From NCBI GenBank assembly GCA_041302525.1, contig JBFYQX010000052.1, positions 1,518-65,517 of the forward strand: a stretch of DNA of 64,000 nucleotides. Direction: 5' to 3'. How positions within the stretch are numbered: position 1 is the stretch's first letter; the number at the start of each line of letters is the position of its first letter. Under the pieces are notes generated by a model that ran no database searches, was not told where the DNA came from, and was given only the letters and a program-made list of their open reading frames with translations. The position numbers and the translations under genes are program-made. The DNA is from Candidatus Bipolaricaulota bacterium. GTDB lineage: Bacteria > Bipolaricaulota > Bipolaricaulia > UBA7950 > UBA9294. Positions 3,183 to 49,171 of this stretch are shown in pieces.

Positions 3183-4307
3183 GTGTTGAGGCGCATCGCC
3201 GCAGTCATCTTTCACGCCCCCCTCGGGACCAGCGAAGGAGAGCGCCTCGTCGAAGCCGCGCGGTGGGCCGCGAGCCTCGGCCTCGCGCGTCGCCTTCGCG
3301 ATGCTGGGGTCAGCGAGCTGTACGTCGTGACCTCCGACGAGGCACGCTGCCCGCGGCCGAGCGGCCTCATCGAGTGGCTTCCCACACCCGGCGCTGAGCC
3401 CTTTCACTTCGGCCACGCTCTTCAGGAACTGATCGCACAACTCGAGCTCGATGGCGTGCTCTACTTCGGCAGCGGGTCGGGAGGGCTCCTGGCCGTGAAC
3501 GAGCTGGCGCGTCTGGCGGAGTTCGCACGTCAGCCCTCGCCGCGCGCCGTGTTCAACAACTTCCACTCGTGCGATTTCTTCGCGCTCGCCGACGCTCGCC
3601 GGGTGCTCGATATCGAGCTTCCCGCGATTGACAACCCGCTGGGGCACACGTTGGCCGACGCCGGCTTCCCCTGCCTCGCGTTGCCGCGGAACGCGGCGAC
3701 GCAGTTCGACATTGACACGCCCACCGAGCTCGCTCTCTTGGCGCGCAGTGCGCACGGCAACGAGGCATTGCGCGCGCACTGCGCCCGGCTGGAGATCGGG
3801 CACCCCACGCTCGACCGCGCGCTCGAGATTCTCACCGACCGCACGGCGTTGACCCTGCTGGTGGGCAGGCTTAGTCCGGTGACGTGGAGTCAGTTCGAAA
3901 CCGAGGTCGCTTGCCGCACCGGCGCGCTGTCCGAAGGACGCGGCCTGCGCGCGCACGCGACGCGATACGTCCCTTGGCTTCGCCAGACGATCGCGCAGGA
4001 CGGTCCCGACATCCTGTTCGAGCGTCTGAAAGAGGCTTGCGACGCCGCCTGGATCGACTCGCGGCCCCTCTTGGCGGAGGCGGGCAAGATGCCGCCGGCC
4101 GGCGACCGGTTCGCAAGCGACCTCTTCCGTCCAGACGAGATCGGCGATCCGACGTGGCGCGCCTTCACCCAGGCGGCGCGGGACGCCGGGATCCCCATCG
4201 TCCTGGGTGGACACAGCCTGGTGAGCGGCGATCTGTACCTGGCGGCCGACGCATGCTGGAAAGGGCGAAACCTAGCTCGTAGACTTCACCCGGAACCCTT
4301 CGTGTGA
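3183..4307 (+). CDS. Hypothetical two-domain protein. The N-terminus is a MobA/CofC-like nucleotidyltransferase fold; the C-terminal domain is of unknown function.
   Basis: 374-aa ORF. The motif ...QFDIDTPTELALL resembles the DxDTPEDL motif of MobA-like NTP transferases. Its stop (TGA 4305-4307) overlaps the region upstream of the following gene. The start is uncertain (GTG 3183 or TTG 3186). Confidence 0.55.
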   Translation: MLRRIAAVIFHAPLGTSEGERLVEAARWAASLGLARRLRDAGVSELYVVTSDEARCPRPSGLIEWLPTPGAEPFHFGHALQELIAQLELDGVLYFGSGSGGLLAVNELARLAEFARQPSPRAVFNNFHSCDFFALADARRVLDIELPAIDNPLGHTLADAGFPCLALPRNAATQFDIDTPTELALLARSAHGNEALRAHCARLEIGHPTLDRALEILTDRTALTLLVGRLSPVTWSQFETEVACRTGALSEGRGLRAHATRYVPWLRQTIAQDGPDILFERLKEACDAAWIDSRPLLAEAGKMPPAGDRFASDLFRPDEIGDPTWRAFTQAARDAGIPIVLGGHSLVSGDLYLAADACWKGRNLARRLHPEPFV

Positions 4308-4321
4308 ACAAAGGAGCGATC

Positions 4322-7300
4322 ATGAGTAGCGGACGTCCCCCGCTTCATGTCCTCGATGTGGATGCCCAGACCGCAGCGCTGATGGCCGCCGAGGAACGAC
4401 GTCAGAGGGAGAAGATCATCCTGATCCCGTCGGAGAGCCTCACGCCGCTCGTGGTGCGGGAAGCGCTCGGCTCGGCCTTCACGAGCGTCTACGCCGAGGG
4501 GTACCCGCGGAAGATGATGATGCGACAGACCGAGGAGCAGCTGGCGGATCTCGACGCACAGCTGGCAAGCTACCGTCGCTACGCGGACCGCCGTTTCTAC
4601 AAGGGGACAGAGATCGCAGACGTCCTCGAGTCATTGGCCGCACGGCGCGCCGCCGAGTGCTTCGCCACGCCGGAGTACCCGGCAGAAGGGATCTACGCCA
4701 ACGTGCAGGCGCTCTCAGGGGCCGCGGCGAACCTGGCCGTGTACGACGCGCTCGTGCAGCCGGGAGAGACGGTCATGGGCATGGCGCTCACCGAAGGGGG
4801 ACACCTTACGCACGGGTCGGAGTTCAACGTCACCGGCCGCAGGTACCGTATCGTCTCCTACGCCATCGACCGCAAGACAGGCAAGCTAGACTACGACAAG
4901 ATCCGCGCCCTGGCCCGTGAGCACCGTCCACGCATGATCATCGGCGGCTTCACGTCGTACCCGTGGCAACCCGACTGGGCCCTGTTCCGCGAAATCGCCG
5001 ACGAGGTTGGAGCGATGCTTCTTGCCGACGTCGCGCACACGGCCGGACTCATCGTCGGAAGGGTCTACCCCAACCCGATTGGACATGCCCACGTCATCTC
5101 GTTTACAACCCACAAGACGCTCTGCGGGGGGCGCGGCGCTGTGATCCTGACGACGAACTCCGAACTCGCCGCGCGAATCGACACGGCGATCTTCCCTGGG
5201 CAACAGGGCGGCCCCCACGTAAACAAGTTCGCCGCCCTCGCGGTCGCGCTTCAGCTGGCGAAGGAACCCGCGTTCACCGCCCTGCAGCAGCGTATCGTGG
5301 AGAACGCGCAGCACCTGGCGCGCGCGCTCCAGGAGAACGGCCTCGCGCTCGCCTACGGGGGCACAAACACCCACCTCTTGCTCGTCGACCTGCGCGAGAT
5401 CAAGACCGAGACCGGGTTCGTCATGATGGGCGAGATCGCCTCGCGCATCCTCGACCTGGTCGGCATCGTGTGCAACAAGAACACCCTCCCCGGCGACACG
5501 AGTGCCGCGGACGCACATGGGATTCGGCTCGGCACGCCGTGGGCGACCCAACGGGGCATGGGCAAACAGGAGATGGAAGCGATCGGCCGGATCGTCGCGC
5601 GGGTTCTGCTCTCGATCCAGCCATTCTCCTACCAGGGGCTGCGCGGCGAGCTGTCGCGCGGCAAGCTCCCGGTGGAGACCCTGGAGAAGGCCCGACAGGA
5701 GGTGCGCGAGATCGTGGCCCGCATCGATCCGCGTCTCGGCGGACGGTTCGACGGCGAGACGCATCGGCAGAGCGGCTCTTCCTGGGACGTCCTGCGCGTC
5801 CGCAGCAGCCGAGCCGGCGCGCTCTTGCAGGAGGCCGCGACGAGCGACCTTCGTACGCTCGCGCCGGCCGGCACGTCGCGCGCTTTCTTCCTCGATGGGG
5901 CCGGCCGGGTTCTCTCGGGCGCCGTGATCGGCATGGTGGGAAGGGACGACTACGTCGTCCTGGTGCCTCCGAGCCGCGGCCGCGAGCTGTGCTCATGGCT
6001 CCAGGGCTTGGCCGAGGGCTATACGTTGTTCGACTCCGAGGACCTCTTCCGCAAGGTGCAGGGGCCGGCCGTGGTCGAACTCGTTGACCCCGCGGCGCTC
6101 CCCGCCTCGGCCGCGACGTGGCTGTCCCTGCGACCCGAAGGGGAGGACGCCGGGGCAGGACAACCGGGCGACGAACTCGCACGGGCCTACCCACAACGCT
6201 TCGCGCTCGACAAGCCCTACTTCGTGGGACTGCCCAAGCTCACCGACCGGGCGACTGCGCCCGCGCCGGCGGCCTTCGCGTGGGCAGGCGACGTCGCCGC
6301 GGGCCTGCGGACGACCCCGCTCCATGATTCCCACGTCGCCCTCGGGGCCAGGCTCGTGCCCTTCGCCGGCTGGGAGATGCCGGTGTGGTACACGTCGGCG
6401 CTCGAGGAGCACCGCGCGGTGCGCCACGCGGCCGGGCTGTTCGACCTCGGCCACATGGGCGTCTTTCACGTCGAGGGAGACCACGCGACGGAGTTCCTGA
6501 ACGCCGTGACCTCGAACTACGCGGGCTGGCTCGAGGACGGTCAGTCCCATTACGCCTACCTGTTCGGCCCCGACGGCGCCGTGATCGACGACATCTGGGT
6601 GTACCGCCGCGCTTGGAACCGGTACCTCGTCATCGTCAACGCGTCGAACGAGCCGAAGGATTGGGATTGGCTGAACGGAGTGAATGAGGGCCGGTACTCA
6701 GTCGACCTCGGCCGCCCAGGCTGCCGGGTCACGCCGGGCGTCGTGCTCCGCGACCTGAAGCGTGAGCGCGGCGTAGTGGACGTCGCCCTCCAAGGGCCCA
6801 AGAGCCAGGCGGTGTTGGCCCAGCTCCTCGGCCCGGCCGAACGGCGCTGGGTCGAAGGACTCGAACGCACGGAGTTCTGCGAGATCTCCGTCGATGGCCA
6901 TCAGCTGCTCGTGGCGCGAACAGGGTACACGGGCGAGCCGCTCGGCTACGAGATCTACGCCGCTGCGCCCGACGCGCTCTGGCTGTGGGAGCGCCTCCTC
7001 GACGTTGGGCGCCCCCTGGGGCTCCTCCCCTGTGGCCTCGCGTCACGCGACTCAACGCGCACGGAGGCCGGGCTGCCGCTCTACGGACACGAGATCGCCG
7101 GCCCGCACGGAGTGAATCCGTTCGAGGCAGGATTTGGCCCCTACGTCAAGCTGCACAAGTGCTTCTTCATCGGGCGAAAGGCATGCGTCGACGCGGCGCG
7201 CGCGCTCCGGCGCGAGGTGGTCCGCTTTGAGGCCGACGCGGGGGCTCGCCCCGTGCGCGAAGGCGCCCTGACCCTAGATCGCAACGGGAACGTGCTCGGG

Positions 7301-7522
7301 CGCGTGACGAGCTGCGTCAGTCTCGGCAATACGCAAACGGGCCTCGCGCTGCTCGACCGGTGCGGCGTCCCCGTGGGCACCCAGCTCCTCCTGCTCCCCG
7401 CGCCGCGGGCCGGGGCATCGTCGGGGGCGAGCGAAGGCTCTCGGTACGCGGTGCCCAGCCCTGGCCGGATCGTCGCGCGGTTCTTGGCGCAGAGCCAGCC
7501 CGCGGAGAGCGCGGCGGAGTAG
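4322..7522 (+). CDS. Fusion protein: serine hydroxymethyltransferase-like PLP domain (N-terminus) joined to a glycine-cleavage T-protein/aminomethyltransferase-like folate-binding domain (C-terminus). About 1066 aa.
   Basis: One uninterrupted frame. The N-terminus has SHMT hallmarks (LIPSESLTPLVVREALGS..YAEGYP, PLP-lysine motif ISFTTHKTLCGGRGAVI). The C-terminus has GcvT hallmarks (PLHDSHVALGARLVPFAGWEMPVWY, HRAVRHAAGLFDLGHMGVFHVEGD, EPLGYEIY). The ATG at 4322 has AAAGGAG 6 nt upstream. The track ORF begins at GTG 4304. Confidence 0.85.
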   Translation: MSSGRPPLHVLDVDAQTAALMAAEERRQREKIILIPSESLTPLVVREALGSAFTSVYAEGYPRKMMMRQTEEQLADLDAQLASYRRYADRRFYKGTEIADVLESLAARRAAECFATPEYPAEGIYANVQALSGAAANLAVYDALVQPGETVMGMALTEGGHLTHGSEFNVTGRRYRIVSYAIDRKTGKLDYDKIRALAREHRPRMIIGGFTSYPWQPDWALFREIADEVGAMLLADVAHTAGLIVGRVYPNPIGHAHVISFTTHKTLCGGRGAVILTTNSELAARIDTAIFPGQQGGPHVNKFAALAVALQLAKEPAFTALQQRIVENAQHLARALQENGLALAYGGTNTHLLLVDLREIKTETGFVMMGEIASRILDLVGIVCNKNTLPGDTSAADAHGIRLGTPWATQRGMGKQEMEAIGRIVARVLLSIQPFSYQGLRGELSRGKLPVETLEKARQEVREIVARIDPRLGGRFDGETHRQSGSSWDVLRVRSSRAGALLQEAATSDLRTLAPAGTSRAFFLDGAGRVLSGAVIGMVGRDDYVVLVPPSRGRELCSWLQGLAEGYTLFDSEDLFRKVQGPAVVELVDPAALPASAATWLSLRPEGEDAGAGQPGDELARAYPQRFALDKPYFVGLPKLTDRATAPAPAAFAWAGDVAAGLRTTPLHDSHVALGARLVPFAGWEMPVWYTSALEEHRAVRHAAGLFDLGHMGVFHVEGDHATEFLNAVTSNYAGWLEDGQSHYAYLFGPDGAVIDDIWVYRRAWNRYLVIVNASNEPKDWDWLNGVNEGRYSVDLGRPGCRVTPGVVLRDLKRERGVVDVALQGPKSQAVLAQLLGPAERRWVEGLERTEFCEISVDGHQLLVARTGYTGEPLGYEIYAAAPDALWLWERLLDVGRPLGLLPCGLASRDSTRTEAGLPLYGHEIAGPHGVNPFEAGFGPYVKLHKCFFIGRKACVDAARALRREVVRFEADAGARPVREGALTLDRNGNVLGRVTSCVSLGNTQTGLALLDRCGVPVGTQLLLLPAPRAGASSGASEGSRYAVPSPGRIVARFLAQSQPAESAAE

Positions 7523-15730: not shown

Positions 15731-16402
15731 ATGAGTGAGGTGAGACCTCGCGCGCATCAGCTTCCGGAGTACACGCTCGGCGAGGAGATCGCCAACAGCG
15801 CCACGCACGGCGTCGGCGCGCTGCTCAGCCTGCTCGGGACGACGCTCCTCCTCTATCGCGCAGTGCGTTCAGGCACGACACTGCACGTCGTCAGCTTCTC
15901 CATCTACGGCGCATGCCTGTTCCTGCTGCACCTCTCGTCGACCCTGTACCATGCCCTGCGCCCGCCGCGCGCGAAGAAGGTGTTTCGCGTCTTCGACCAC
16001 TGCTCGATCTACCTCCTGATCGCCGGGACATACACGCCATTTCTCCTCCTGTCGTTGTGGGGCAGTTGGGGACTGACTCTGTTGATCGCCATCTGGAGCC
16101 TGGCGATCGCCGGCGTCGTCTTCAAGAGCCTCTTCATCCACCGTCTGAAGAAGGCGTCGGTTGTCCTCTACGTGCTGATGGGTTGGATGATCGTCGTTGC
16201 GGCTCGCGAGGCCTGGTTGCGTGTGCCGCACGCAGCCATCGGTTACGTCGCTGCGGGCGGCCTCTCGTACACGGCCGGCGTCGCCTTCTACGCCTGGAAG
16301 AGGCTGCCGTACAACCATGCGATCTGGCACCTGTTTGTCCTCGGCGGGAGCATCTGCCACTACGTCGCGATCCTCGTCTACCTCTTGCCGCCGGCTGCCT
16401 AG
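15731..16402 (+). CDS. Hemolysin-III / PAQR family integral membrane protein
   Basis: 223 aa with 7 TM helices and the conserved His-containing motifs (...NSATHGVGA..., ...HLSSTLYH..., ...HAIWHLFVLGGSICH...). Confidence 0.85.
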   Translation: MSEVRPRAHQLPEYTLGEEIANSATHGVGALLSLLGTTLLLYRAVRSGTTLHVVSFSIYGACLFLLHLSSTLYHALRPPRAKKVFRVFDHCSIYLLIAGTYTPFLLLSLWGSWGLTLLIAIWSLAIAGVVFKSLFIHRLKKASVVLYVLMGWMIVVAAREAWLRVPHAAIGYVAAGGLSYTAGVAFYAWKRLPYNHAIWHLFVLGGSICHYVAILVYLLPPAA

Positions 16403-17555: not shown

Positions 17556-18273
17556 GGACGAACGGAAGGCGGAGACGCGCCACGCGAGGGACCGATCCCG
17601 CAACGGTAAGCGCGGTCCCGTTCTCCATCGGCGTCCACGATCCCGCAAGGTCGGCAAGCGGCTCGGAGGCGACGATCGCGCCCCGGGGCGTCTGCGTCCA
17701 CCAGAGCGTGTAGTACGCGCGCGCCGTGACGTCGCCCCACGCGCAGAACGCCCACAGCCCGCCCGGCCCGAGGAGAAGGACGTTGAGCGCGGTGACGTCA
17801 CGCAGGGCGCTCGCGGCGTCCTCGAACGCCTCGACCGGGTCGCGCCCAGCGAGTCTGGCCGCCATGCGGCGGAAGAACCGCTCCGAGTCCGTGCGCCCCC
17901 TGCCGTCATCCGGCTCGTCGCGCAGCGTCCCGTTGTGGCAGAAATGCCACGTTGCGCCGTCGATCTCAAGCGAGAACGGGTGGGCGTTGTCTACGCCGAG
18001 CCCGGCGACGGAGGCGAGGCGCGCGTGAAGGAGCCGCACGCGGCCCGCACGCACGTCGGCGAACGCCGGATCGTCCCAGCACGGCCGCGCGCCGCGGACG
18101 CGGCGCAGGGTCTCGCCGTCGTCGAGGACGGCGCCCCAGCCGTCACCATGCGCGAACGCGCCGAGCACCCTGTTCTTCTCGTGCAGCGCGTTCTCTCCAC
18201 GCGCCATCCGCAGGAACGGTGGGACGGCGGACGCACCGTCGATCCCGGGCAGGGCGGCCATCATGCGGCACAT
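17536..18273 (-). CDS. Class-II (Ntn-type) glutamine amidotransferase domain protein; a Cys follows the initiator Met (YafJ/EgtC-like)
   Basis: The chosen start MCRMMAALPG... places the nucleophilic Cys at position 2, as in class-II GATases. The track ORF begins 20 codons upstream. Confidence 0.65.
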   Translation of the reverse strand: MCRMMAALPGIDGASAVPPFLRMARGENALHEKNRVLGAFAHGDGWGAVLDDGETLRRVRGARPCWDDPAFADVRAGRVRLLHARLASVAGLGVDNAHPFSLEIDGATWHFCHNGTLRDEPDDGRGRTDSERFFRRMAARLAGRDPVEAFEDAASALRDVTALNVLLLGPGGLWAFCAWGDVTARAYYTLWWTQTPRGAIVASEPLADLAGSWTPMENGTALTVAGSVPRVARLRLPFVPTFGAA

Positions 18274-18347
18274 GCCGGCGAGTGTACCCGCAGGGACGCT
18301 GGCGAGACGGCACCCGGTCACCCTGTCCACCAATGGGAGGAGGAGTC

Positions 18348-19331
18348 ATGGATAAGACGGGGTTCCGCGCGTACCTCGCGACCCGACATGCCGACGAGGA
18401 ACTGACCCAGCGTTCGATCGCCTTGGCAGAGCGGTTCGCGACCCACGCGCGCGAGGCCTACGGCGCCGAACCGCAGCAGGCTTCAGGCGAAGCGGCGCGG
18501 TCCTTCGCGCGCGCGTTGATGACGACCGGCGAGAACACGTTCGATAACCTGCTGGCGGTCGCGCGGTTCGGTCGCTTCGTCGGAAACCACGAGGTTCTCA
18601 TCGCCGCGCTCGAGATCCTGGACGGACACGAAGCGCTCGGCAACCTGCAAGAGAAGGTCGGGCACGAGGCGGGCGCCCGTGCGCGTGACGAGGTCTTCGC
18701 CGGAGTCGACGTCCCGCCGCTCGGCGTCTCGAACCTCGACCGCGCGCGGCGCATGCGCGCGGTCGTCGAGCGGCTCGAGGCCCTCGTCGGCCGCGATGGG
18801 GCCGCGCGGCTCATCGGCCAGGGTCTGCGCGATCTCCCTGACGACGGCTTCGCCGGGCACAAGGCGGAGTACGAGGAGGCCGGCGGCGTCGACGAGTACC
18901 TGCGACGGAAGGGGGATCGCTTCATCGCTGAACTCAAGGCACTGCGCGACGCAGGCGACCTGTACTTCTCTCAGCCGGTCACCGACGCGGTCATCGCCTA
19001 CGTCGAGAGCCACCCCGAGATCCGCCAGGGCGTGCGCGTCGGCAACGTTCTCTACGAGGCCAAGATCCCGTACATGGCCGACGCGTACCTTCACGAGCGG
19101 GACCCGCGGAGGAAGGCCTACCTGTACTGCCACTGCCCGTGGGCTCGCGAGCTGCTTCAGACCGACGAGAACCCAGTTCCCGCTTCGTTCTGCGCCTGCA
19201 GCGGCGCCTTTCATCGCCGGCCGTACGAGGTGATCTTCGGACGACGGCTCGCGAGCCACGTCCTCGAGACGGTCCTCGCCGGAGATCCTTGGTGTCGGTT
19301 CGCGATCGTGCTCCCCGAGGACGTCGCGTAG
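18348..19331 (+). CDS. Hypothetical protein, 327 aa, with a C-terminal Cys/His cluster (YCHCPW...FCACSGAF)
   Basis: ATG 18348 follows GGGAGGAGGAG. No confident family assignment. Confidence 0.6.
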   Translation: MDKTGFRAYLATRHADEELTQRSIALAERFATHAREAYGAEPQQASGEAARSFARALMTTGENTFDNLLAVARFGRFVGNHEVLIAALEILDGHEALGNLQEKVGHEAGARARDEVFAGVDVPPLGVSNLDRARRMRAVVERLEALVGRDGAARLIGQGLRDLPDDGFAGHKAEYEEAGGVDEYLRRKGDRFIAELKALRDAGDLYFSQPVTDAVIAYVESHPEIRQGVRVGNVLYEAKIPYMADAYLHERDPRRKAYLYCHCPWARELLQTDENPVPASFCACSGAFHRRPYEVIFGRRLASHVLETVLAGDPWCRFAIVLPEDVA

Positions 19332-19347
19332 CCTGTCGTAGTCCGGC

Positions 19348-20571
19348 CTAGCCAATCAGGCCGAGCGCGCGCCCGACCGTGGCGAAGGTCTCGAGGACGC
19401 GATCCATCTGCTCGTCCGTGTGCGTCGCCATGTAGCTCGTCCGCAACAGCGCCTTGCCCTGTGGAACGGCGGGCGGGATCGCCACGTTGACGTAGACCCC
19501 CGCGTCGAACAAGGTGCGCCACGCGCGCATCGCGTCGAGCGAGTCGCCAATGAAGATCGGGATGATCGGCGTCTCGCTCTCGCCGATGTCAAATCCCAGC
19601 GCGCGGAGGTCCCGACGCATGCGTGCCGCGATCGCGTTCACGCGGTCGACGCGCTCAGGCTCTCGTTCCATCACGTCGAGCGCGGCGAGCGCGGCGGCGA
19701 CGTTGGGGGCCGGCGGGCTGGCGCTGAAGATGAGCGAGCGGGCGAGGTGCTGGATCCAATGGATCGCCGCCTCGTCGCCGGCCACGAAACCGCCGATCGA
19801 GGCGAACGCTTTGCTGAACGTGCCCACGATAAGGTCGACGTCGCCGGTCATCCCGAAGTGGGCCGCCGTGCCGCGCCCGCCGCCGAGGACGCCGACGGCG
19901 TGCGCGTCGTCGACCAGGAGCCGCGCCTCGTGCCTACGGCAGACCGGCGCGATGTCGGGAAGCCGGACGATCTCCCCGCCCATGCTGAACACGCCGTCCA
20001 CCACGACGAGCTTCCCCGCGCCGGCGGGACAAGCCGCGAGCACGCGGTCGAGGTCCTCGGGGTGGTTGTGGCGGAACCGCGCCATGCGCCCGAGGGCCAG
20101 GCGGCAGCCGTCGACGATGCTCGCGTGGTCCTCCTTGTCGCAGACGACGATGTCGCTGCGACCGACGAGCGCGGACAGGACGCCGAGGTTGGCCTGATAC
20201 CCCGTGCTGAAGACGAGCGCCTTTTCCTTACCGACGAACTGCGCCAGTCGGTCTTCGAGCTCGCCGTGCAGGGCGAGGGTGCCGTTCAGAAACCGCGACC
20301 CTGTACAGCTCGTGCCGAACTGACGGATCGCGCGAATCGCCGCCTCACGGACTTCGGGGTGGGTGGTCAGACCCAGGTAGTTGTTCGATCCGAGCATGAC
20401 GAGCCGCCGCCCCTGGATCCGAACCTCGGTGCCCTCGGTCTCGTCCAGCGGGATGAAGAACGGGTAGACGCTCATCTCCTTCAACCGGTTGGGGCTCGCT
20501 GGATATCCCATGCTCTCCGCCACGCGGGGGTCGGAGAAGAATGCTCGGCACTTGGCAAACAGGTCTGTCAC
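19348..20571 (-). CDS. Alpha-oxoamine synthase family PLP enzyme, closest in motifs to serine palmitoyltransferase (SPT)
   Basis: 407 aa. The GTFSKAFASIGGF PLP-lysine motif is the SPT-type GTFSKSF, unlike BioF GTLSKALG or Kbl GTLGKALGG. The fold-type I AOS family is supported across the sequence. Confidence 0.85.
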   Translation of the reverse strand: MTDLFAKCRAFFSDPRVAESMGYPASPNRLKEMSVYPFFIPLDETEGTEVRIQGRRLVMLGSNNYLGLTTHPEVREAAIRAIRQFGTSCTGSRFLNGTLALHGELEDRLAQFVGKEKALVFSTGYQANLGVLSALVGRSDIVVCDKEDHASIVDGCRLALGRMARFRHNHPEDLDRVLAACPAGAGKLVVVDGVFSMGGEIVRLPDIAPVCRRHEARLLVDDAHAVGVLGGGRGTAAHFGMTGDVDLIVGTFSKAFASIGGFVAGDEAAIHWIQHLARSLIFSASPPAPNVAAALAALDVMEREPERVDRVNAIAARMRRDLRALGFDIGESETPIIPIFIGDSLDAMRAWRTLFDAGVYVNVAIPPAVPQGKALLRTSYMATHTDEQMDRVLETFATVGRALGLIG

Positions 20572-21449
20572 GTCGTCCTCCCTCGCCGCGGGGCCGACCG
20601 GTCGTCCACGCGGTACGTGGCCGCGAGCATCGCCTCAAAGGCCCGACTGGGCAGGATCTTCTTCAGCTGCAAGGCAGCACGCTGCATGGCCGGCCCGACC
20701 GTGTAGCGCAGGCGCGGCCGACGGGCCACCAGAATCCGGCAGACCCGACGAGCGACTGGCTCGGGCGTCCGAGCCCCGCGTTCGTCTCGTTCGATGACCT
20801 CCAGGGCGCGGGCAAAGGCCTCCTGATAGGCGCTTCCTGCGCCCGCGTTGCGCAGACGCGTCCGCCGGTCAGTGAACGCCGTGTGGAAATCCCCGGGCTC
20901 GACGAGAACGACGCGAATGCCGTGCGCTCGAACCTCGAGGCTCAGCGCCTCGGCAAGGCCTTCCAGGGCGAACTTGGTCGCGCTGTACAGCCCCTGGAAC
21001 GGCAGTCCGATCCGCCCGCCGATCGATGAGACGAGGACGATCGTGCCGCCGCCCTGCGCGCGCATCGCCGGCAGGACCTCGCGGCACACACGGAGCGCGC
21101 CCAGCAGGTTCGTCTCGAGAATCGCGCAAGCCTCGTCGTCGCTCGCGTCTTCGAGCGCCCCGCCGATCCCGAATCCGGCGCAGTGAACGACGCTGTCGAG
21201 ACGGCCGTCGGCCAAAATGCACGCGACCGCCTCGCGGACCGAGTCGGCGCGGTCGACGTCGAGGCGAACCGCCTCGATGCGTGCCCCGGGGCCGAGGTCG
21301 CGCCGCAGGTCGGCCCCGAGTTCGTCAGAGGGGCGACGCGACGCAGCATAGACGAGCGCCCCGCGCCGCCCGAGCTCGAGTGCGCAGGCGCGCCCGATGC
21401 CGGAGGAGGCTCCGGTCACCAGCACGATCGACTCCTGGACGCGACGCAT
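20568..21449 (-). CDS. Classical short-chain dehydrogenase/reductase (SDR), a candidate 3-ketodihydrosphingosine reductase
   Basis: VTGASSGIGR cofactor motif and the YSATK catalytic motif. Its stop overlaps the SPT-like start (ATGA). Confidence 0.85.
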   Translation of the reverse strand: MRRVQESIVLVTGASSGIGRACALELGRRGALVYAASRRPSDELGADLRRDLGPGARIEAVRLDVDRADSVREAVACILADGRLDSVVHCAGFGIGGALEDASDDEACAILETNLLGALRVCREVLPAMRAQGGGTIVLVSSIGGRIGLPFQGLYSATKFALEGLAEALSLEVRAHGIRVVLVEPGDFHTAFTDRRTRLRNAGAGSAYQEAFARALEVIERDERGARTPEPVARRVCRILVARRPRLRYTVGPAMQRAALQLKKILPSRAFEAMLAATYRVDDRSAPRRGRTT

Positions 21450-22009
21450 CAGGAAGCCTCCCTCGCGACATCTCGGCCCGCGCGGAGCCGGTCGATCGTC
21501 GCCAGATCGAGCCGGCCGGCCTGCCCCCAGCCCGCCCGGCCCGCGGTCGCCGCGGGACGCATCGCCATGTACAAGTCCATCGCCTGTGCGTTGAGCCGGT
21601 CCGGCTCGTAGGTCGCGGCGAGCGCAACGAGCTTGGCCTCGATCAGGCCCTGGGACTCCTTAAACTTCGCCGTGAGGGTTCGCCGCACGCTTGCCGGGTC
21701 GATCGGCGCGGCGTCGGCCAGCGCCCGCAGCCCTTCCGCGGTGCGCACGCAGGGGACGGTTCTTCCCATGAGTTCGACGGTCTGCACGCCAAGGTCCCGC
21801 CGTCGGCTCTCGATCTCGTCGCGCACGGCCGCCGGACGGCGCGCGGCGAGTCCCAGGCGCACCGCCTTCGCGGCCGCCGTCTGGCCGGCGATTGCCCGCC
21901 CCAACGTGAGCGCCTCGTCGGGCGCGTACCCAAGGCGCCGCGCCACGACGGACGCCCACAACGTGAGGAACGGGGCGCGATTGACGAGGATCTCGGGCGT
22001 CGCGTCCAT
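21449..22009 (-). CDS. Hypothetical protein, 186 aa; first gene of the putative hypothetical-SDR-SPT operon
   Basis: The start MDATPEILV was chosen. Its stop overlaps the SDR start. No family recognised. Confidence 0.5.
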   Translation of the reverse strand: MDATPEILVNRAPFLTLWASVVARRLGYAPDEALTLGRAIAGQTAAAKAVRLGLAARRPAAVRDEIESRRRDLGVQTVELMGRTVPCVRTAEGLRALADAAPIDPASVRRTLTAKFKESQGLIEAKLVALAATYEPDRLNAQAMDLYMAMRPAATAGRAGWGQAGRLDLATIDRLRAGRDVAREAS

Positions 22010-22031
22010 CGAAAGCGCTCCGCCGCGGCCG

Positions 22032-22253
22032 CTAGACGGCCTCGACCGTGACCACGCCCGGCACGCGCTCTTTGACGATGCGTTCAATCCCGTTCTTGAT
22101 CGTCATCATCGACATCGGGCAGCCGTGACAGGCTCCCTGAAGCCGAACGCGAACGACGCCGCCCTCGGTCACCTCGACGAGCTCAACGTCGCCGCCGTCG
22201 GCCACGAGCATCGGACGGACGGTCTCCAAGGCCTCCAGAACCTTCTCGAACAT
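22032..22253 (-). CDS. NifU-like (Nfu-type) Fe-S cluster scaffold domain protein
   Basis: MFEKVLEALETVRPMLVADGGDVELVEV...CHGCPMSMMTIKNGIERIVKERVPGV. The CxxC motif and architecture match Nfu. Confidence 0.8.
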   Translation of the reverse strand: MFEKVLEALETVRPMLVADGGDVELVEVTEGGVVRVRLQGACHGCPMSMMTIKNGIERIVKERVPGVVTVEAV

Positions 22254-22383
22254 GCGTGCTGTCTCCTTCCGCGCCGCGGCGCGCCCGACACCCGGAGGGT
22301 AAGAGTACCCGCTGCACGCGAACACCTCATGCCGCGCGGCGGCAAAAAGAGACGCGCCGCCCTTGAGGCGACGCGTTACCTAT

Positions 22384-22413
22384 TATATACGTCGCCGGGG
22401 CGAGGCATGTCAA
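22384..22413 (-). promoter_or_regulatory. Candidate sigma70 promoter on the minus strand for the NifU-like gene: TTGACA-18 nt-TATATAAT
   Basis: Minus-strand TTGACA is the reverse complement of 22408-22413; TATATAAT is the reverse complement of about 22381-22389. This is a striking AT-rich patch in a high-GC background. Confidence 0.4.
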
Positions 22414-22456
22414 GGGTCGATCGACCGGCCTCACAAACCGCGGCCAGTTCGCACGG

Positions 22457-22756
22457 CTACGGCCTGTACAGACAGTGATACGCTGTCGGGACGCGCACGG
22501 CGAGGTGGAACCTCTGGCCTGCGCCCACCTCAAACGACTGCCCGCTGCGAAACGTCCGGTCACGCTCGGTTCCCGGCAGCCGCACGGTCAGCTCGCCGTC
22601 GATGACGGTCATCACCTCGACGCTCGTCGTCGAGAAGTCGTACGCCCCCGGCAGCATGACCCCGACCGTGGCCCGACCGTGCGCGCCGTCCAACGCGATC
22701 GACTTCACGCTGCCCTCGTGGTACTCGTTCACCTTGAGCGTCACCAGACCTCCCAT
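22457..22756 (-). CDS. ppnP: Pyrimidine/purine nucleoside phosphorylase PpnP (YaiE, DUF1255 cupin)
   Basis: The 99-aa sequence aligns with PpnP along its whole length (NEYHEGSVKSI..., GVMLPGAYDFST..., EVMTVIDGEL..., FHL.V..PTAY.C.Y). Confidence 0.8.
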   Translation of the reverse strand: MGGLVTLKVNEYHEGSVKSIALDGAHGRATVGVMLPGAYDFSTTSVEVMTVIDGELTVRLPGTERDRTFRSGQSFEVGAGQRFHLAVRVPTAYHCLYRP

Positions 22757-22924
22757 CCGTCGGCAGTATACGCCGGCGCGGCGCGGCGGGCCGGCTTGGC
22801 GGGAAACGCCTCTCGGGCGCCGGGGTCAGACGCGACGCGCGCAGGTGCTCGATCGCGCGCGGGCGGCATCCTCCCTGTCCTTGCCCGTTCCCCGTCCAGC
22901 GAGTATCTCTTGAGCGGAGGGGCG

Positions 22925-23182
22925 ATGAAAGCCAAAGAGCGTCAGCCAAAAGACCGAGACCTGGACGAGCGACCGTTCGGTGACTCGCACTTCACCGCAC
23001 TGCGCCGCGATGTGCGGCCGCGCGCGAAGCCCCACGCCCCGCGTCGGGATGCCGAGCCTCCGCTGCCCGGCGATCCGTCACGCTACGCATGGCACGACGG
23101 CGTCCTCGATGACCTCGATCCCCGGCCGTCCCGGCGTTCGGGCCGCATCCACGCCGGCCGCGGCGCGGACGCTCGCCCGTAA
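22925..23182 (+). CDS. Possible small basic hypothetical protein, 85 aa
   Basis: ATG 22925 follows GGAGGGG. No homology recognised. Could be spurious. Confidence 0.3.
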   Translation: MKAKERQPKDRDLDERPFGDSHFTALRRDVRPRAKPHAPRRDAEPPLPGDPSRYAWHDGVLDDLDPRPSRRSGRIHAGRGADARP

Positions 23183-23189
23183 GAGCCCG

Positions 23190-23741
23190 TCAGGCGCCCT
23201 GTTCGGCCAACACCAAGTACCGCTGGTAGGCGGCCTCTTCGCGCGACGGCACGAGGAAGTCGTACGCGGCCATCCCGAAGCTCGCGACCGCGGAGTAGAG
23301 CCAATCGTACGCACTGAACAGGTTCATCGGGTACACGATCGTGGCGATGCCCGCGGCCACGTTTCCTACGCCTGACAAGACGCGGTCACGTCGGCCCTGG
23401 TCGGCCAGCCGCCCGAGCGCGAGGGCTGCGGCGACCTCCGAGTCTGCTTGCTTCGCTTCGGTTTCCGCAGGACTTGGAACGAGCAGGAGAATCGCACCGG
23501 GCAGGGCCGTCGCGCCCGCAGCGAGGTAGCCATACAGCAAGAGGTCCGTGCCCGTGAGGAGCACGGCGCTGGCGACGCCGATCGCCGCCCCAATCCCGAG
23601 GCTCACCCAGCCCGACGCCACGCGCTCGGCGCGCGCGGACGCCGCAAGATCGTCAAGCACGTCCTGGGCGGGGCCGGCGTAGACTCCCGTGACCCCCAAC
23701 GCGAGAACGAGCACTGCCACTCCAGAGACTTTCCCGATCAC
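23190..23741 (-). CDS. Hypothetical integral membrane protein, 183 aa
   Basis: Several hydrophobic helices (MIGKVSGVAVLVLALGVTGVYAG...). Confidence 0.55.
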   Translation of the reverse strand: MIGKVSGVAVLVLALGVTGVYAGPAQDVLDDLAASARAERVASGWVSLGIGAAIGVASAVLLTGTDLLLYGYLAAGATALPGAILLLVPSPAETEAKQADSEVAAALALGRLADQGRRDRVLSGVGNVAAGIATIVYPMNLFSAYDWLYSAVASFGMAAYDFLVPSREEAAYQRYLVLAEQGA

Positions 23742-23832
23742 CTCTTCCTCCTTCTCTCCCCTGGCTGGCAGTGTAGGCGCGCCGCCCGCGGGAAGGAAGT
23801 GGCGGAGCCCCTTCTCGCACTCGCCCCGCTCG

Positions 23833-25902
23833 CTACGCGCGCGCCGCCCGACGCGCCTCGACGATGCTCTCGGAGATGCTGTAGGGGACCGTCTCGTAGT
23901 GCTCGAACTGCATGGTGAATGTGCCCCGCCCGCTGGTCAGGTTCCTGACCTCCGACGCGTAGCCGAACATCTCGGCGAGCGGCACGGACGCGCGCAGCAT
24001 GACGGCGTTGGCGCGGGAGTCCATGCCGGCGATCCGTCCCCTCTTGCTGCAGAGGTTCCCGGTGAGCGGCCCGGTGTACTCCTCTGGGGCGGTGACCTCC
24101 ACGCTCATGATCGGCTCGAGGAGCTCGAGCCCGGCCGCGAGACACGCCTCGCGGAATCCCATGCGCCCGCACGTTCGGAACGCCTGCTCTGACGAGTCCA
24201 CCTCATGCATCGAGCCGTCGGTGATCGTGACGCGGATGTCGACCATCGGGAACCCCGCGTAGGGTCCGCTCGTCATCTCCTCGACAATGCCCCGCTCGAT
24301 CGCTGCGAGGTACTCGCGCGAGATCTTGCCGCCCGACACCTCGTCTTCGAACTGGAACCCGGAGCCGGGCTCGCTCGGCTCAATGCGGAAGACCATGTGC
24401 GCGTACTGGCCGCGCCCGCCGGTCTGCTTGACGTGTCGGTACTCGTGCTCGACAGGGGCGAGGATCGTCTCGCGGTAGGCAACCTGCGGGCGATCCGACG
24501 TCACCGCAACGCCGAACTCCCGCCGCAACCGGTCGACGATGATCTCGAGGTGCAGCTCGCCCATGCCCGAGATGACGACCTCGCCGGTCTCGGCGTCCGA
24601 ACGCACGATGAACGTCGGGTCTTCGTCGGCCAACCGATGCAGGGCCTGCGACAGCTTGTCGCGGTCGTCGCGCGACTCCGGGCGAACGGCCACGCCGATG
24701 ACCGGCGCGGGAAACTCGATCGACTCGAGAACGATGGGGTGATCGGGGCTGCACAGCGTGTGCCCCGTCAGCGTATCGCTCAACCCGACGGCGGCTCCGA
24801 CGTCGCCGGCCTGTAGAGCCTCGATCGGCTCGCGATCGTTCGCGTGCATCTCGAACAGCCGCCCGACGCGCTGTGCCTTGCCGATCGACGAGTTGAGGAG
24901 GTGGGCTCCGCTCTCCAGGCGGCCGGAGTAGATGCGCACGTAGGTCAGCTTCCCCATGTGGCGGTCCGACTGGATCTTGAACGCCAACGCCGCAAGCGGC
25001 CCGTCGGCGCGCGGGTGGCGAATCAGCTCGCCGTCCGTCTCGGCGCTGACCCCAATGACCGGAGGAAGGTCCACGGGCGACGGGAGGAAGTCGACGATCG
25101 CGTCGAGCAGCCGCCGGACGCCCTTGTTCTTGAACCCCGCGCCGCACAAGACGGGAATGAACCGCCCCTCGATCGTGGCGCGGCGGATGGCCGCGACGAT
25201 CTCGTCCCGCTCCGGCACGACGCCCTCGATGAACTTCTCCATCAAGAGGTCATCCTGCTCGCTGATCCGTTCGATCAACTCGGCGTGCGCCGCGCGCGCC
25301 GTCTCGAGGAGATCGGGCGGGATCGGCTCCTCGCGCACGTCCGTGCCGTGCGGCGACTCGTCGTAGTACAGGGCCTTCATGTCCATGAGGTCGACGATCC
25401 CGCGGAAGTCCGACTCGGCGCCGATCGGGATGACCACCGGGACCGCATTGGCGCCCAGCTCCTGGCGGATCTCCTCGACGACTCGCCAGAAGTCGGCCCC
25501 CGTGCGGTCCATCTTGTTCACGAACGCGATGCGCGGAACCCCGTACTTGTCGGCCTGCCGCCAGACGGTCTCCGCCTGAGGTTGCACGCCGCCGACCGCG
25601 CAGAACAGCGCCACAGTGCCATCCAGGACGCGCAGGCTGCGCTCCACCTCGGCCGTGAAGTCGACGTGCCCCGGCGTGTCGATCACGTTGATGCGGTGAC
25701 CTCGCCAGTAGGTCGTCGTGGCGGCCGACGTGATCGTGATCCCGCGCTCCTGCTCCTGGACCATCCAATCCATCTTGGCTTCGCCATCGTGGACTTCGCC
25801 CAGCTTGTGGCGCTTCCCGGTGAAGAAGAGGATCCGTTCCGTCACGGTGGTCTTGCCGGCGTCGATGTGGGCCATGATGCCCACATTGCGGATCCGGTCC
25901 AT
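23833..25902 (-). CDS. fusA: Elongation factor G paralogue (EF-G2-like); not located in an str operon
   Basis: 690 aa from [19 protein letters not shown]. Carries G1-G4 motifs ([12 protein letters not shown]) and full EF-G domains II-V. Confidence 0.9.
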
Positions 25903-35141: not shown

Positions 35142-35181
35142 CTGCTTGCGGCCTCGCGACGCCTCCGGTACCTTGAATCCC

Positions 35182-36081
35182 ATGGAGATCAGGATCGCGC
35201 GTGAGGCGGACCGCGAGAGAATCCTCGCCATCTCGGCTCAGGTCTGGGATGGGTACGACTACGTCCCTCGCGTGCTCGACGCGTGGCTGTCCGGCGAGGA
35301 CGGAGAACTCCTCGTCGCGCTGTTGGATGGGAGCGTGGCCGCCTTCTCTTACCGCACGTGGCTCGCGGAGAGGCACGCCTGGCTGCAAGGGATTCGCACC
35401 GACACGGCGCGGCGCGGGCGCGGCGCGGGACGCGCGCTGACCGAGGCGTCGCTCGAGCGGTCGTGGCGGGACGGAGCGCAGCGCATTGGCTTGTCGACCT
35501 ACCGCGACAACGCAGAGTCGATGCATATCGTGGAGGCGTACGGGTTCCGGCGCGTCGCGTCGTTCGTCTACCTCGAGGGAGACCTACCGGAGGGCGCCGG
35601 CCTCTCGAGCGGCACGATCCACGCTCTGCCAGAAGATGCCGCGATCCGCTTCGTCGCTGACTCCGACTACCTCGAGCGCGCCGGCGGCCGCTTCGCGCGC
35701 GACTGGAAGTTCCTGGCGTTTCGCTGGGCGCCCCGCGTGGCCCTCGGCTGGACGCCGTACCGCATCGGAGTCCTGCGCGACGGCGCGTGGGTCGCTGCGC
35801 TCTGCGCCTCGCCGCCCGCCGCACCGTCTGACGCGGCGTTTCTCACCTTCCTCGATGGCGACCCGGAGGACATGGCGGCGCTGCTTCGCGTCGCGCGCTC
35901 TGAGCTCGAGGCGGAGAAGTGGGAGGCAATGGTGCCGAAGGACGGCGAGCGCGATCGTGGGACGCTCGGACTCCTGCGCGAGCTGGGCATGCGTTCGTGG
36001 TCGGAGTTCGAGGACGACGTCTTCGTCTACGAGCTCGACCGGGAGAGCGCGGGCAACGGCCAGGCCGGGAGCGCGCCGTGA
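35182..36081 (+). CDS. GNAT-family N-acetyltransferase
   Basis: The N-terminal acetyl-CoA binding core (...IRTDTARRGRGAGRAL...) fits the GNAT fold. Confidence 0.7.
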   Translation: MEIRIAREADRERILAISAQVWDGYDYVPRVLDAWLSGEDGELLVALLDGSVAAFSYRTWLAERHAWLQGIRTDTARRGRGAGRALTEASLERSWRDGAQRIGLSTYRDNAESMHIVEAYGFRRVASFVYLEGDLPEGAGLSSGTIHALPEDAAIRFVADSDYLERAGGRFARDWKFLAFRWAPRVALGWTPYRIGVLRDGAWVAALCASPPAAPSDAAFLTFLDGDPEDMAALLRVARSELEAEKWEAMVPKDGERDRGTLGLLRELGMRSWSEFEDDVFVYELDRESAGNGQAGSAP

Positions 36082-36872
36082 GCCGCGCGCCGTGGACGCT
36101 GACCCCCGCCGAGCGGGCGCGTTACGCGCGCCACCTCGTTCTGCCCGACGTCGGGGAAGAGGGGCAGCTTCGTCTGAAGGCGGCGCGCGTCCTGATCGTC
36201 GGTCTCGGCGGCCTCGGCAGTCCCGTCTCGCTCTACCTGGCCGCGGCCGGGGTGGGGACCCTGGGGGTTGTCGACGCCGACCGCGTCGAGGTCTCGAACC
36301 TCCAACGGCAGGTCCTGTACGGAGAGCGGGATGCCGGGACCCCAAAGACCGAGGCGGCGCGGGCGCGGCTCGCGGACCTCAACGCGTCGATCCGCGTGGT
36401 CGCACACCCCGTGCGGTTCGCCGCGCCGAACGCTCGGCGCATCGCCGCGGACTACGATCTGATCGTCGACGGGACCGACAACCTCGCGTCGCGCACTGTG
36501 ATGAACGACGTCGCGCTCGAACTGGGGATCCCCTACGCCTACGGGGCGGTGTTTCAGTTCGAAGGGCAGGCGGCCCTCCTCTGCGCGCCGGGCGCCCCCT
36601 GCTACCGCTGCCTCTTCCCCACCACCCCGCCGCCGGAGTCGCTCCGCCCGGCCGAGGAGACCGGCATCCTGGGCGTCGTGCCCGGCGTGGTGGGCCTCCT
36701 GCAGGCGAGCGAAGTCCTCCGCTTCCTCGCGCGCTACGCGCCGGCGGACACGAGCCGTCTCCACCTCTACGACGCGCGACGGATCGAGGTCACGACGATC
36801 CCCATCCCGCGGGATCCCGCGTGTCCCGCCTGCGGACTCGGGCCGACTACACGGACGTCGTCTTCTCCGTGA
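36078..36872 (+). CDS. ThiF/MoeB-family E1-like adenylyltransferase
   Basis: Gly-rich nucleotide loop VGLGGLGSP, C-terminal CxxC pairs. GTG 36078 overlaps the GNAT stop (GTGA). Confidence 0.8.
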   Translation: MSRAPWTLTPAERARYARHLVLPDVGEEGQLRLKAARVLIVGLGGLGSPVSLYLAAAGVGTLGVVDADRVEVSNLQRQVLYGERDAGTPKTEAARARLADLNASIRVVAHPVRFAAPNARRIAADYDLIVDGTDNLASRTVMNDVALELGIPYAYGAVFQFEGQAALLCAPGAPCYRCLFPTTPPPESLRPAEETGILGVVPGVVGLLQASEVLRFLARYAPADTSRLHLYDARRIEVTTIPIPRDPACPACGLGPTTRTSSSP

Positions 36873-38166
36873 ACCGCACGCCCATCGTCGCCAGTTCGGC
36901 GAGCACCGGGTCGTAGATCTCGCGGACCATCGGAACCTGGACGCCGGTGAGCCGGATCTCGCCCTGGAGGATCATCCGCGAGGCGATGGCCGCGGGGAGT
37001 CCGACCAGGCGCGACATCGACGTGTCGCCGTGGGGGATCCCGTAGTCGACCATCGTGGAGAAGACCTTCTCCCTTCGGCCAGGATACTCGACGAGGAACT
37101 CGTGCTGCATGACGAGCATGTCGCGTTCTCCAGGCGCGTACTGCATCTTCGCCAGCATGCGCTGCGCCAGAACGTCGAGGTAGGTCGTCGCGCCCTTGGG
37201 AAGAGGTTCGGTGCTCGTGAGCCCGAGCCAGACGAGGTCGGTGACGGGCTTCGCGTCGGGAGCGAGGCCGAGGTGCCGCGCGAGGTCGTTGGCCGTCGCC
37301 GCGCCCTTCAGTTCGAGAAGGCGTCCGGTCCACTGCGCGAACGTCAGGCCGCCTAGGTCCTTACGCTCCGCCTCATCGAGGATCCCGAGATCGACGACTG
37401 CCTTGAGCGTGTTGCACCAGCCCGGGTAGCGGAGCGTCCCACGGAACATGCTCCGGACGGTTGGAATGCCGTAGCTCTCGATGTACGGGACCGAGTCACG
37501 ATTCGGGTACACCTCCAGCTCGCCGAACCCGACGATCGGGCAAGCCCAGTGGTTGGCGAACAGCTCCGGGCCGGGAATGTCGATCATCGTCCCGTCCTTT
37601 AGGTAGCGCGCCGGGTTCTTGCCCGCCATCACGACGCCGCGCGGGGCCCACGAGAACTTGTAGCCCATCGGGTTCGTGTTCGCGTCGGGGGCCGGCAGCC
37701 CGCCCGTGTTCGACGTGAAGCCGACCAGCGTCCCGCCGTCATCGCGGATGCGGTGGATCATCTGCATCGCCGACATGTGGTCGATGCCCGGGTCGACGCC
37801 GATCTCGTTCAGCAAGATGACGCCCGCGGCGCGGGCCGCGCCGTCCTGAACGCGCATCGCGTCCTTCACGTAGGACGTCGTCACCATGTGCCGCTTGTGC
37901 TTGACGCACAGCCGCGCGACGAGCGGGTGGTGGGCGTAGGGGAGGAGGCTGATTGAGAGATCATGCTTCGCGACAAGCGCCTCGAGCGCCGTCTCGTCCT
38001 CGACATCGAGGGCCACGGCCGTGCCGTTCTTGGCGCCTCCGATGAGTTTCTCCGCCTTATCGACCGTGCGGGTGGCGACGGTGACGTGGAACTCCCTGAC
38101 GTTCAACAGGTAGCGAACGAGCGGGCCGGCGACGAGGCCGGCGCCGAGGACCAATACGGTGTGCAC
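36847..38166 (-). CDS. Saccharopine dehydrogenase (LYS9-type; saccharopine reductase family)
   Basis: 439 aa. N-terminal Rossmann fold VLVLGAGLVAG and the Sacchrp_dh C-terminal domain. Confidence 0.85.
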   Translation of the reverse strand: MHTVLVLGAGLVAGPLVRYLLNVREFHVTVATRTVDKAEKLIGGAKNGTAVALDVEDETALEALVAKHDLSISLLPYAHHPLVARLCVKHKRHMVTTSYVKDAMRVQDGAARAAGVILLNEIGVDPGIDHMSAMQMIHRIRDDGGTLVGFTSNTGGLPAPDANTNPMGYKFSWAPRGVVMAGKNPARYLKDGTMIDIPGPELFANHWACPIVGFGELEVYPNRDSVPYIESYGIPTVRSMFRGTLRYPGWCNTLKAVVDLGILDEAERKDLGGLTFAQWTGRLLELKGAATANDLARHLGLAPDAKPVTDLVWLGLTSTEPLPKGATTYLDVLAQRMLAKMQYAPGERDMLVMQHEFLVEYPGRREKVFSTMVDYGIPHGDTSMSRLVGLPAAIASRMILQGEIRLTGVQVPMVREIYDPVLAELATMGVRFTEKTTSV

Positions 38167-38186
38167 GGTGGCTCCTTCCCTGCGCC

Positions 38187-39497: not shown

Positions 39498-39512
39498 TCG
39501 ACGTCTCCCTTC

Positions 39513-39530
39513 CACGTTCGAGAGAACGTG
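39513..39530. promoter_or_regulatory. Perfect palindrome CACGTTC-GAGA-GAACGTG immediately upstream of the LKR RBS; candidate operator
   Basis: 7-bp arms with a 4-bp spacer, 16 nt upstream of the ATG at 39497. Confidence 0.3.
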
Positions 39531-43768: not shown

Positions 43769-45214
<1,446 letters not shown>

Positions 45215-48872: not shown

Positions 48873-48887
48873 GCTATCCCTTCCTCT

Positions 48888-49163: not shown

Positions 49164-49171
49164 GCACCCTC

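Follow-up and report, generated by a model that had tools for sequence, protein, structure and literature searches.

A coupled kdsR-like/spt-like gene pair in Candidatus Bipolaricaulota, a candidate module for sphingoid-base synthesis

A stretch of 64,000 nucleotides from a Candidatus Bipolaricaulota genome, hereafter the window, encodes on its minus strand three overlapping genes: a conserved protein of 186 aa, a classical short-chain dehydrogenase/reductase (SDR) and an alpha-oxoamine synthase (AOS) that resembles serine palmitoyltransferase (SPT) (Table 1). An earlier note, made from the DNA letters, had proposed that the three form a translationally coupled module for a sphingoid base or an amino-ketone lipid. 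Inspection of the open reading frames (ORFs) confirmed the co-directional, overlapping arrangement as well as the motifs quoted at that time, VTGASSGIG and YSATK in the SDR and GTFSKAF in the AOS. The third-position GC content ranges from 0.84 to 0.89 in the three frames against about 0.70 overall, which argues that they are real genes. At the first junction, the TGA of the 186-aa gene shares one base with the ATG of the SDR (TGATG) and AGGGAGG precedes; at the second, the TGA of the SDR overlaps the GTG of the AOS (GTGA) and GGGAGGA precedes. Both are ribosome-binding sites of the GGAGG type. The start of the AOS agrees with its homologues, which measure 405–407 aa and are covered at 100%. 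The homologues of the 186-aa protein are 177–190 aa long and all open with M-x-E-I-x-V-N-R-A-P; judged by these lengths and by the common start motif, a 212-aa ORF beginning at TTG, which had been called mechanically for this gene, was too long and was rejected.

Table 1. Genes and signals of the SDR-AOS region (positions in the window)
Feature	Position	Strand	Remarks
AOS, SPT-like	19348-20571	-	407 aa, GTG start; pyridoxal phosphate (PLP) lysine K254 in GTFSKAF; Pfam Aminotran_1_2 6.5e-57
Classical SDR, KdsR-like putative 3-ketosphinganine reductase	20568-21449	-	293 aa; Pfam adh_short 2.7e-43
Conserved protein of 186 aa, function unassigned	21449-22009	-	ATG at 22009, GGAG 8 nt upstream
NifU-like gene (Nfu C-terminal domain)	22032-22253	-	73 aa; Pfam NifU 5.2e-28
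Terminator-like hairpin	22352-22376	-	11-bp stem with 8 GC pairs, followed by a T-run; terminates the Ppnp gene upstream

The family placement of the AOS was evaluated on curated models and on proteins of solved structure. The top NCBIfam match was the SPT model of the CFB bacterial group (NF047600, SPT-CFB) with 491 bits for a cut-off of 640, followed by the beta-proteobacterial SPT type (NF047599, 421 bits, cut-off 500); a further SPT model, NF047603, gave 338 bits (cut-off 670). Among the non-SPT models, a BioF/Kbl-related subfamily reached 383 bits, bioF 382 bits (cut-off 426) and Kbl 348 bits (cut-off 460). The ranking of PDB sequences was headed by the SPTs of Sphingobacterium multivorum (389 bits), Sphingomonas wittichii (314 bits) and Sphingomonas paucimobilis (299 bits), and then came the Thermus BioF/KBL (288 bits), a cysteate acyltransferase (249 bits), KBL (241 bits) and BioF (206 bits). 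The AOS is 47% identical to the S. multivorum enzyme (SmSPT), 41–42% to the Sphingomonas SPTs and 32–33% to the BioF and Kbl of Escherichia coli, while SmSPT and the Sphingomonas SPTs share just 35–36% with each other, less than the AOS shares with either.

The residues of the active site were then compared one by one. The protein belongs to the AOS superfamily (PLP fold type I), which is marked by a lysine that binds PLP, a histidine stacked on it, an aspartate to the pyridine nitrogen and a C-terminal arginine for the carboxylate: K254, H149, D221 and H224 align with K244, H138, D210 and H213 of SmSPT. For the 22 SmSPT residues that contact PLP, L-serine or the acyl chain, listed in PMC10196870, 18 are identical in the AOS and four are conservatively changed. 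All nine positions of serine recognition and of the acyl tunnel (N52, Y54, G80, S81, F83, S243, T241, F28 and A274) are identical, and the network around the serine hydroxyl (N52, G80, S81, S243, T241) is fully kept. The acyl wall Y27/F28/F83 of SmSPT corresponds to F38/F39/F94 in the AOS, versus E/E/F in Kbl and R/R/H in BioF. Furthermore, the residue before the PLP lysine is a serine (Ser253, TFSK) as in SPTs, whereas BioF and Kbl have a glycine. The arginine of the motif LLRTS in the AOS aligns with that of LLRCS in the S. paucimobilis SPT, presumably R390.

The same alignment bears on a sulfonolipid module, in which the AOS would be a SulA-type cysteate acyltransferase and the SDR a 3-ketocapnine reductase. 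The Alistipes SulA, a cysteate acyl-ACP (acyl carrier protein) transferase (PMC9304779), has the fold and the catalytic residues in common with the AOS; the cysteate-C-fatty acyltransferase is a clear homologue at 249 bits, and this pathway also requires a keto-reductase. However, Lys281 of SulA, which is diagnostic for cysteate acyltransferases and is an alanine in Spt (PMC9304779), is replaced in the window AOS by Ala284 (FSAS), aligned with Ala274 of SmSPT. The SPT matches are 50 to 140 bits higher and the window contains no cysteate synthase. We therefore hold a sulfonolipid module to be extremely improbable.

A neighbour-joining tree was computed from 149 sequences, consisting of 135 full-length domains drawn from the 150 best 50%-cluster representatives, eight close homologues, the window AOS and five references (the three structure-solved SPTs and the BioF and Kbl of E. 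coli). The window AOS fell inside the smallest clade that holds all three solved SPTs. With these references, the split between the AOS plus the three SPTs and BioF plus Kbl was recovered in 85% of 200 bootstraps, and the three SPTs were monophyletic without the AOS in 7% of them. The AOS forms its own group with Bipolaricaulota-like metagenome sequences, and its homologues constitute a distinct and very conserved subfamily (70–92% identity). This placement with the SPTs by a distance tree is supportive rather than conclusive.

Several near relatives of the AOS are fused to other domains (49–60% identity; P0250, P0256, P0259, P0241). They comprise a FemAB/GNAT acyltransferase-AOS-PilZ protein of 1022 aa, fatty-acyl-AMP ligase-ACP-AOS proteins of 789 and 1093 aa, and an AOS-DUF1571 protein of 654 aa. 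The fusions to an acyltransferase or to a ligase and ACP, at 49–54% identity, fit with lipid-chain chemistry, and the GNAT-AOS-PilZ architecture hints at a c-di-GMP-controlled synthesis of lipid bases.

The SDR carries the complete catalytic set of its class: the TGxxxGxG motif (VTGASSGIG) and the N-S-Y-K tetrad formed by N113, S140/141, Y154 and K158. Its top NCBIfam model is NF049977, KdsR, with 261.6 bits over positions 2–266 of the 267 of the model. Of 222 families that match, KdsR ranks first, and the next ones, generic SDR models, score at most 216 bits, 46 bits behind. The solved structure nearest to the SDR is the human 17-beta-hydroxysteroid dehydrogenase 1, an SDR acting on a lipid substrate. 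The sequence ASRR after strand beta-2 suggests, by the standard SDR cofactor rules, that the enzyme uses NADPH. Since the Rossmann fold begins at residue 8, the protein is predicted to be cytoplasmic. The likeness to 3-ketodihydrosphingosine reductases (KDSR) pointed out in the earlier note thus stands at the level of the family, KdsR being the best model and matched end to end, while the enzymatic activity remains a prediction, the score being below the curated cut-off.

The linkage of the two genes was analyzed in 80 metagenome loci, from which we counted those with a full-length AOS (~405 aa) of at least 68% identity and with enough upstream flank. In 25 of 28 such loci the gene immediately upstream of the AOS was the SDR, and five further contigs that end early show the 3′ end of the SDR upstream of the AOS. 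The gaps between the two genes are of 6–71 nt in the relatives. Outside the pair, the gene surroundings often have nothing in common between these loci. In three long contigs with unrelated flanks (L089, L090 and L091, AOS at 71–79% identity), the SDR is immediately upstream and the 186-aa gene is missing. The overlapping stop and start codons in the window and the adjacency in the relatives show that the SDR and the AOS are a conserved two-gene unit, and this supports the pairing proposed in the earlier note.

These data weigh on the reading that takes the AOS for a housekeeping enzyme of biotin synthesis (BioF) or of threonine/glycine metabolism (Kbl), and the SDR for a threonine dehydrogenase or a neighbour without relation to it. 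The JGI annotation names the homologues of the AOS "8-amino-7-oxononanoate synthase", and the scores on the bioF model (382 bits, cut-off 426) and against the promiscuous Thermus BioF/KBL (288 bits) are substantial. The AOS has indeed the superfamily and the chemistry in common with the BioF and Kbl of E. coli and with the Thermus BioF/KBL (ThAOS). However, its scores on SPT models and structures exceed these by about 100 bits, and the bootstrap split separates the AOS from BioF and Kbl. The E. coli enzymes have a glycine before the PLP lysine (TFGK/TLGK instead of TFSK), other residues in the acyl pocket, where the AOS has an SPT-like wall, and other gene partners. The conserved partner is here a classical KdsR-like SDR, and not bioA, bioD or bioB, nor a Tdh of the zinc or the GalE-like type; neither biotin genes (bioA/bioD/bioB) nor tdh were found in the window as partners of the AOS. 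A housekeeping role of this kind is therefore very unlikely. The models, the structures, the residues and the tree, the latter with SPT, BioF and Kbl as references, bear out the proposal that the AOS is SPT-like, and correct the JGI label for this subfamily.

We consider it rather probable, from the sequence comparisons, that the SDR-AOS pair is a kdsR-spt module for a long-chain base, with a sphinganine-type base as product. The AOS would be a soluble PLP-dependent enzyme of the SPT type. It would join a long-chain acyl group, carried as a CoA or ACP thioester, to L-serine, yielding 3-ketodihydrosphingosine (3-KDS) and CO2. Reduction of the 3-keto group by the co-translated SDR, which probably uses NADPH, would then give the sphinganine-type base. 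Reduction would precede N-acylation, as in eukaryotes and in Bacteroides. The sequences themselves establish the gene structure, the family resemblance, the conserved catalytic and serine-binding residues and the conserved adjacency; which substrates are used (serine and a long acyl chain), with which cofactor, and what becomes of the base is deduced from these likenesses. Whether such a self-contained operonic module typifies a whole clade of Bipolaricaulota and related uncultured anaerobes is a more tentative idea, which we regard as possible.

Several observations weigh against this assignment. The AOS falls below every curated NCBIfam cut-off, those of the SPT models included (491 bits for 640), and the SDR reaches 261.6 bits on NF049977, whose cut-off is 400. 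The ten nearest AOS cluster representatives are likewise best on SPT-CFB and likewise sub-threshold. The pair would therefore belong to an uncharacterised subfamily that has no biochemically tested member, and since both proteins are below the equivalog cut-offs, the SPT and KdsR functions are inferred and not established. In the tree, the deep branches are very short and the non-SPT references are few, the Thermus AOS, the cysteate enzyme and 5-aminolevulinate synthase (ALAS) being left out. AOS enzymes readily change their amino-acid and acyl substrates. The AOS relatives of 56–68% identity, which are of 391 aa, have no SDR neighbour, with the exception of L136, where an SDR-AOS pair is divergently arranged; no recurrent gene partner was found near this sister group (loci L127–L173).

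The partners that a complete pathway would need were also sought. A search for an ACP and a ceramide synthase had been suggested to support the module; it was made within the 64-kb window, and neither was found. More generally, the window contains no ACP, bacterial ceramide synthase (bCerS), CerR or head-group gene, and its single GNAT (35146–36081) is weakly RimI/ArsN-like. In the relatives, too, the pair has no recurring neighbour among lipid genes, be it an ACP, bCerS, CerR or another, and these absences also count against a sphingolipid pathway. The search for a third conserved partner around SDR-AOS in the relatives gave just lineage synteny, namely GATase_4, YchF, HlyIII and H318, the convergent 318-aa protein encoded downstream of the AOS.

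The pair might instead make another long-chain amino alcohol, from alanine, glycine or another amino acid or with an unusual acyl chain; after reduction, this would be a lipid or signal resembling 1-deoxysphinganine or of another amino-alcohol type. Both proteins being under the curated SPT and KdsR cut-offs, the distinctness of the subfamily (70–92% identity) and the absence of known ceramide genes nearby are in line with this. Moreover, SPTs accept alanine and glycine at low efficiency (PMC10196870), and anoxic waters are rich in 1-deoxyceramides (PMC11334938). However, the network N52, G80, S81, S243 and T241 is kept and none of the substitutions points to another amino acid, so that we judge this product unlikely and favour a serine-derived sphinganine-type base.

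Comparison with known systems places the pair more precisely. The S. multivorum/Bacteroides-type SPT (PDB 3A2B, 8GUH; NF047600) and the window AOS have in common the soluble homodimer type, a length of about 400 aa and 47% of their residues, together with the TFSK motif, the His/Asp/His ligands of PLP, the serine-binding network, the aromatic acyl wall and a PPAVP loop without arginine. Unlike SmSPT, the window AOS has an N-terminal extension of 27 aa and a clade of its own, and it scores 491 bits against 640. It is operonic with its reductase, whereas in Bacteroides thetaiotaomicron the SPT, which we take to be BT_0870, and the KDSR have non-neighbouring locus tags, from which we presume that the two genes are apart. 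This KDSR is BT_0972 (PMC9278070). Compared through the KdsR model (NF049977), BT_0972 and the window SDR are both classical SDRs of about 270–290 aa with the GxxxGxG and YxxxK motifs; unlike BT_0972, the SDR is translationally coupled to an SPT-like gene and scores 262 against 400 bits. In the ceramide pathway of Caulobacter (Spt, bCerS, CerR, ACP and ACP synthetase; PMC11087976), the first step is also carried out by an AOS of the Spt family. In contrast to Caulobacter, neither the window nor the recurring neighbours in near relatives include bCerS, ACP or an NDUFA9-like CerR.

These comparisons concern the order of the steps, since it is disputed whether bacterial 3-ketosphinganine is reduced before or after N-acylation (PMC11087976 versus PMC9278070). 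In Caulobacter, acylation is followed by a periplasmic reduction (PMC11087976), and with BT_0972 of Bacteroides reduction comes first (PMC9278070). The CerR of Caulobacter is periplasmic and NDUFA9-like (PMC11087976), whereas the window reductase is a classical SDR, predicted to be cytoplasmic and encoded before the AOS. This therefore suggests a reduction of free 3-KDS and not of an oxidised ceramide. The coupled KdsR-like/SPT-like pair offers a compact two-gene construct for testing the reduce-first route. If the assignment is true, it would be the first KDS-type reductase genetically welded to a bacterial SPT, and would imply either a eukaryote-like order with an acyltransferase other than bCerS or a build-up of free sphingoid bases. 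It would thus bear on the dispute about the order of the steps and would add a candidate phylum to the sphingolipid producers.

The 186-aa protein was the third member of the proposed module. Searches of Pfam and NCBIfam returned nothing for it, not even with 44 family members and a threshold of E = 1. Its AlphaFold2 model has an alpha/beta fold, predicted with confidence (mean pLDDT 96.8), and Foldseek found nothing similar to this model in the PDB at E < 0.001. The family carries an N-terminal NRAPxLTLWA motif, and its invariant residues are R11, P13, L17, W18, V22, G27, A39, A131, P152 and G160. Among the GTDB species representatives it counts at least 499 relatives, spread over Proteobacteria, Chloroflexota, Planctomycetota, Acidobacteriota and others. 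Of the homologue loci in other genomes, at least 499 in number, the best 80 show a nearby SDR or AOS in the closest case only. The family has no conserved neighbours, and the genes next to it vary (DsbA and OsmC, for example).

A dedicated third component of the pathway, be it an acyl carrier, a chaperone or a regulator, could account for the overlap of the 186-aa stop codon with the SDR start and for the order hypothetical-SDR-AOS kept in five loci (L004, L006, L009, L099 and L161). The overlap is, however, not conserved, the gap being of 54 nt in L004. The gene is present in three of the 21 SDR-AOS loci that have a long upstream flank. One close relative (L101) has the Ppnp-NifU-SDR-AOS order and the convergent H318 as in the window, without the 186-aa gene, and another locus (L015) has NifU, the 186-aa gene and H318, but no SDR-AOS. 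With an SDR or AOS adjoining just the closest of the best 80 homologue loci and no conserved neighbours, a third component is highly improbable. Because of its distribution, its variable neighbours and the arrangements in L101 and L015, we rather see the 186-aa gene as a variable insert, co-transcribed by chance and taking no part in the pathway. These data do not uphold its place in the module, and correct the idea that the upstream hypothetical protein is a pathway member. The family, widespread and uncharacterised, may merit a study of its own.

The NifU-like gene lies 22 nt upstream of the 186-aa gene, with no terminator in between. The hairpin at 22376–22352, upstream of nifU, is the sole strong terminator-like hairpin; terminator-like sites number six in the region for 1.7 expected by chance, and this one is the strongest. 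The short gap, the lack of a terminator between the genes and the strong hairpin upstream of nifU together indicate that the likely transcription unit is nifU-hypothetical-SDR-AOS. The hairpin probably marks its 5′ boundary, with the NifU-like gene first, and the 3′ end of the unit is 17 nt from the convergent 318-aa gene. The upstream position of the NifU-like gene is kept in L001, L004, L006, L009, L099 and L101. A scan of the region found no sigma-70-like promoter, and positions 18000–24000 gave no Rfam match with E ≤ 0.1 for a regulatory RNA. The nifU-like and 186-aa genes are merely co-transcribed with SDR-AOS in this lineage.

Bacterial sphingolipid synthesis was long considered rare, and the earlier note had taken SPT to be confined to a few groups and unexpected in this genome, which it regarded as high-GC and Gram-positive-like. 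Where relatives of the AOS and of the 186-aa protein carry a name, it is instead Candidatus Bipolaricaulota, Bipolaricaulaceae or Acetothermia, and about 20 kb of the window are in synteny with a Bipolaricaulota metagenome-assembled genome (L006); the identical contig is part of the metagenome-assembled genome GCA_041302495.1. The window therefore comes from Bipolaricaulota (taxid 67810), and an origin in a high-GC Gram-positive is rejected. The phylum is uncultured and frequently met in subsurface waters and in sediments without oxygen. The premise of a narrow distribution is dated: predictions put Spt-like proteins in 38–40 phyla, and in many cases bCerS or CerR is not encoded close to them (PMC11334938). 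To find an SPT-like gene in one more phylum therefore extends a known range and is no surprise. We found no literature linking Bipolaricaulota with serine palmitoyltransferase or sphingolipids, the supplements of PMC11334938 included. What is modestly new is the conserved, often overlapping kdsR-like/spt-like operon. If the assignment is true, sphingoid lipids could be attributed to Bipolaricaulota, which would be relevant to the reading of environmental lipid biomarkers.

Other genes of the window were recorded in passing. The convergent H318 (18375–19331, plus strand) has a Cys-rich C-terminus (CHCPW...CACSG...WC) and no Pfam or NCBIfam match. It is found downstream of the AOS in L001, L006, L009, L089, L098–L101 and L117; since L015 has H318 without SDR-AOS, this neighbourhood is probably lineage synteny. 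About 3 kb from the AOS, a PAQR/hemolysin-III protein (15734–16402, plus strand), syntenic in the relatives, passes the cut-off of the NCBIfam TrhA "membrane homeostasis" model with 256 bits. Some eukaryotic PAQR proteins have ceramidase activity. A 1072-aa ORF (4304–7522, plus strand) fuses a serine hydroxymethyltransferase (SHMT, 1.5e-116) with a glycine-cleavage T-protein/aminomethyltransferase (GCV_T, 1.1e-78). Both parts are folate-dependent C1 enzymes; their fusion is unusual and possibly relevant to a glycine/serine-based C1 metabolism in Bipolaricaulota. On the minus strand (36847–39515), a saccharopine dehydrogenase-like gene (Sacchrp_dh_NADP and Sacchrp_dh_C) adjoins a gene with an AlaDH/PNT N-domain; the same two genes are also near the AOS in L091 and may belong to a lysine or polyamine pathway. 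Finally, the genes for the a, b, delta, alpha, gamma and beta subunits of an F-type ATP synthase form a complete operon (43769–50176, minus strand), followed by a ribosome recycling factor gene (50294–50854); these are ordinary housekeeping functions.

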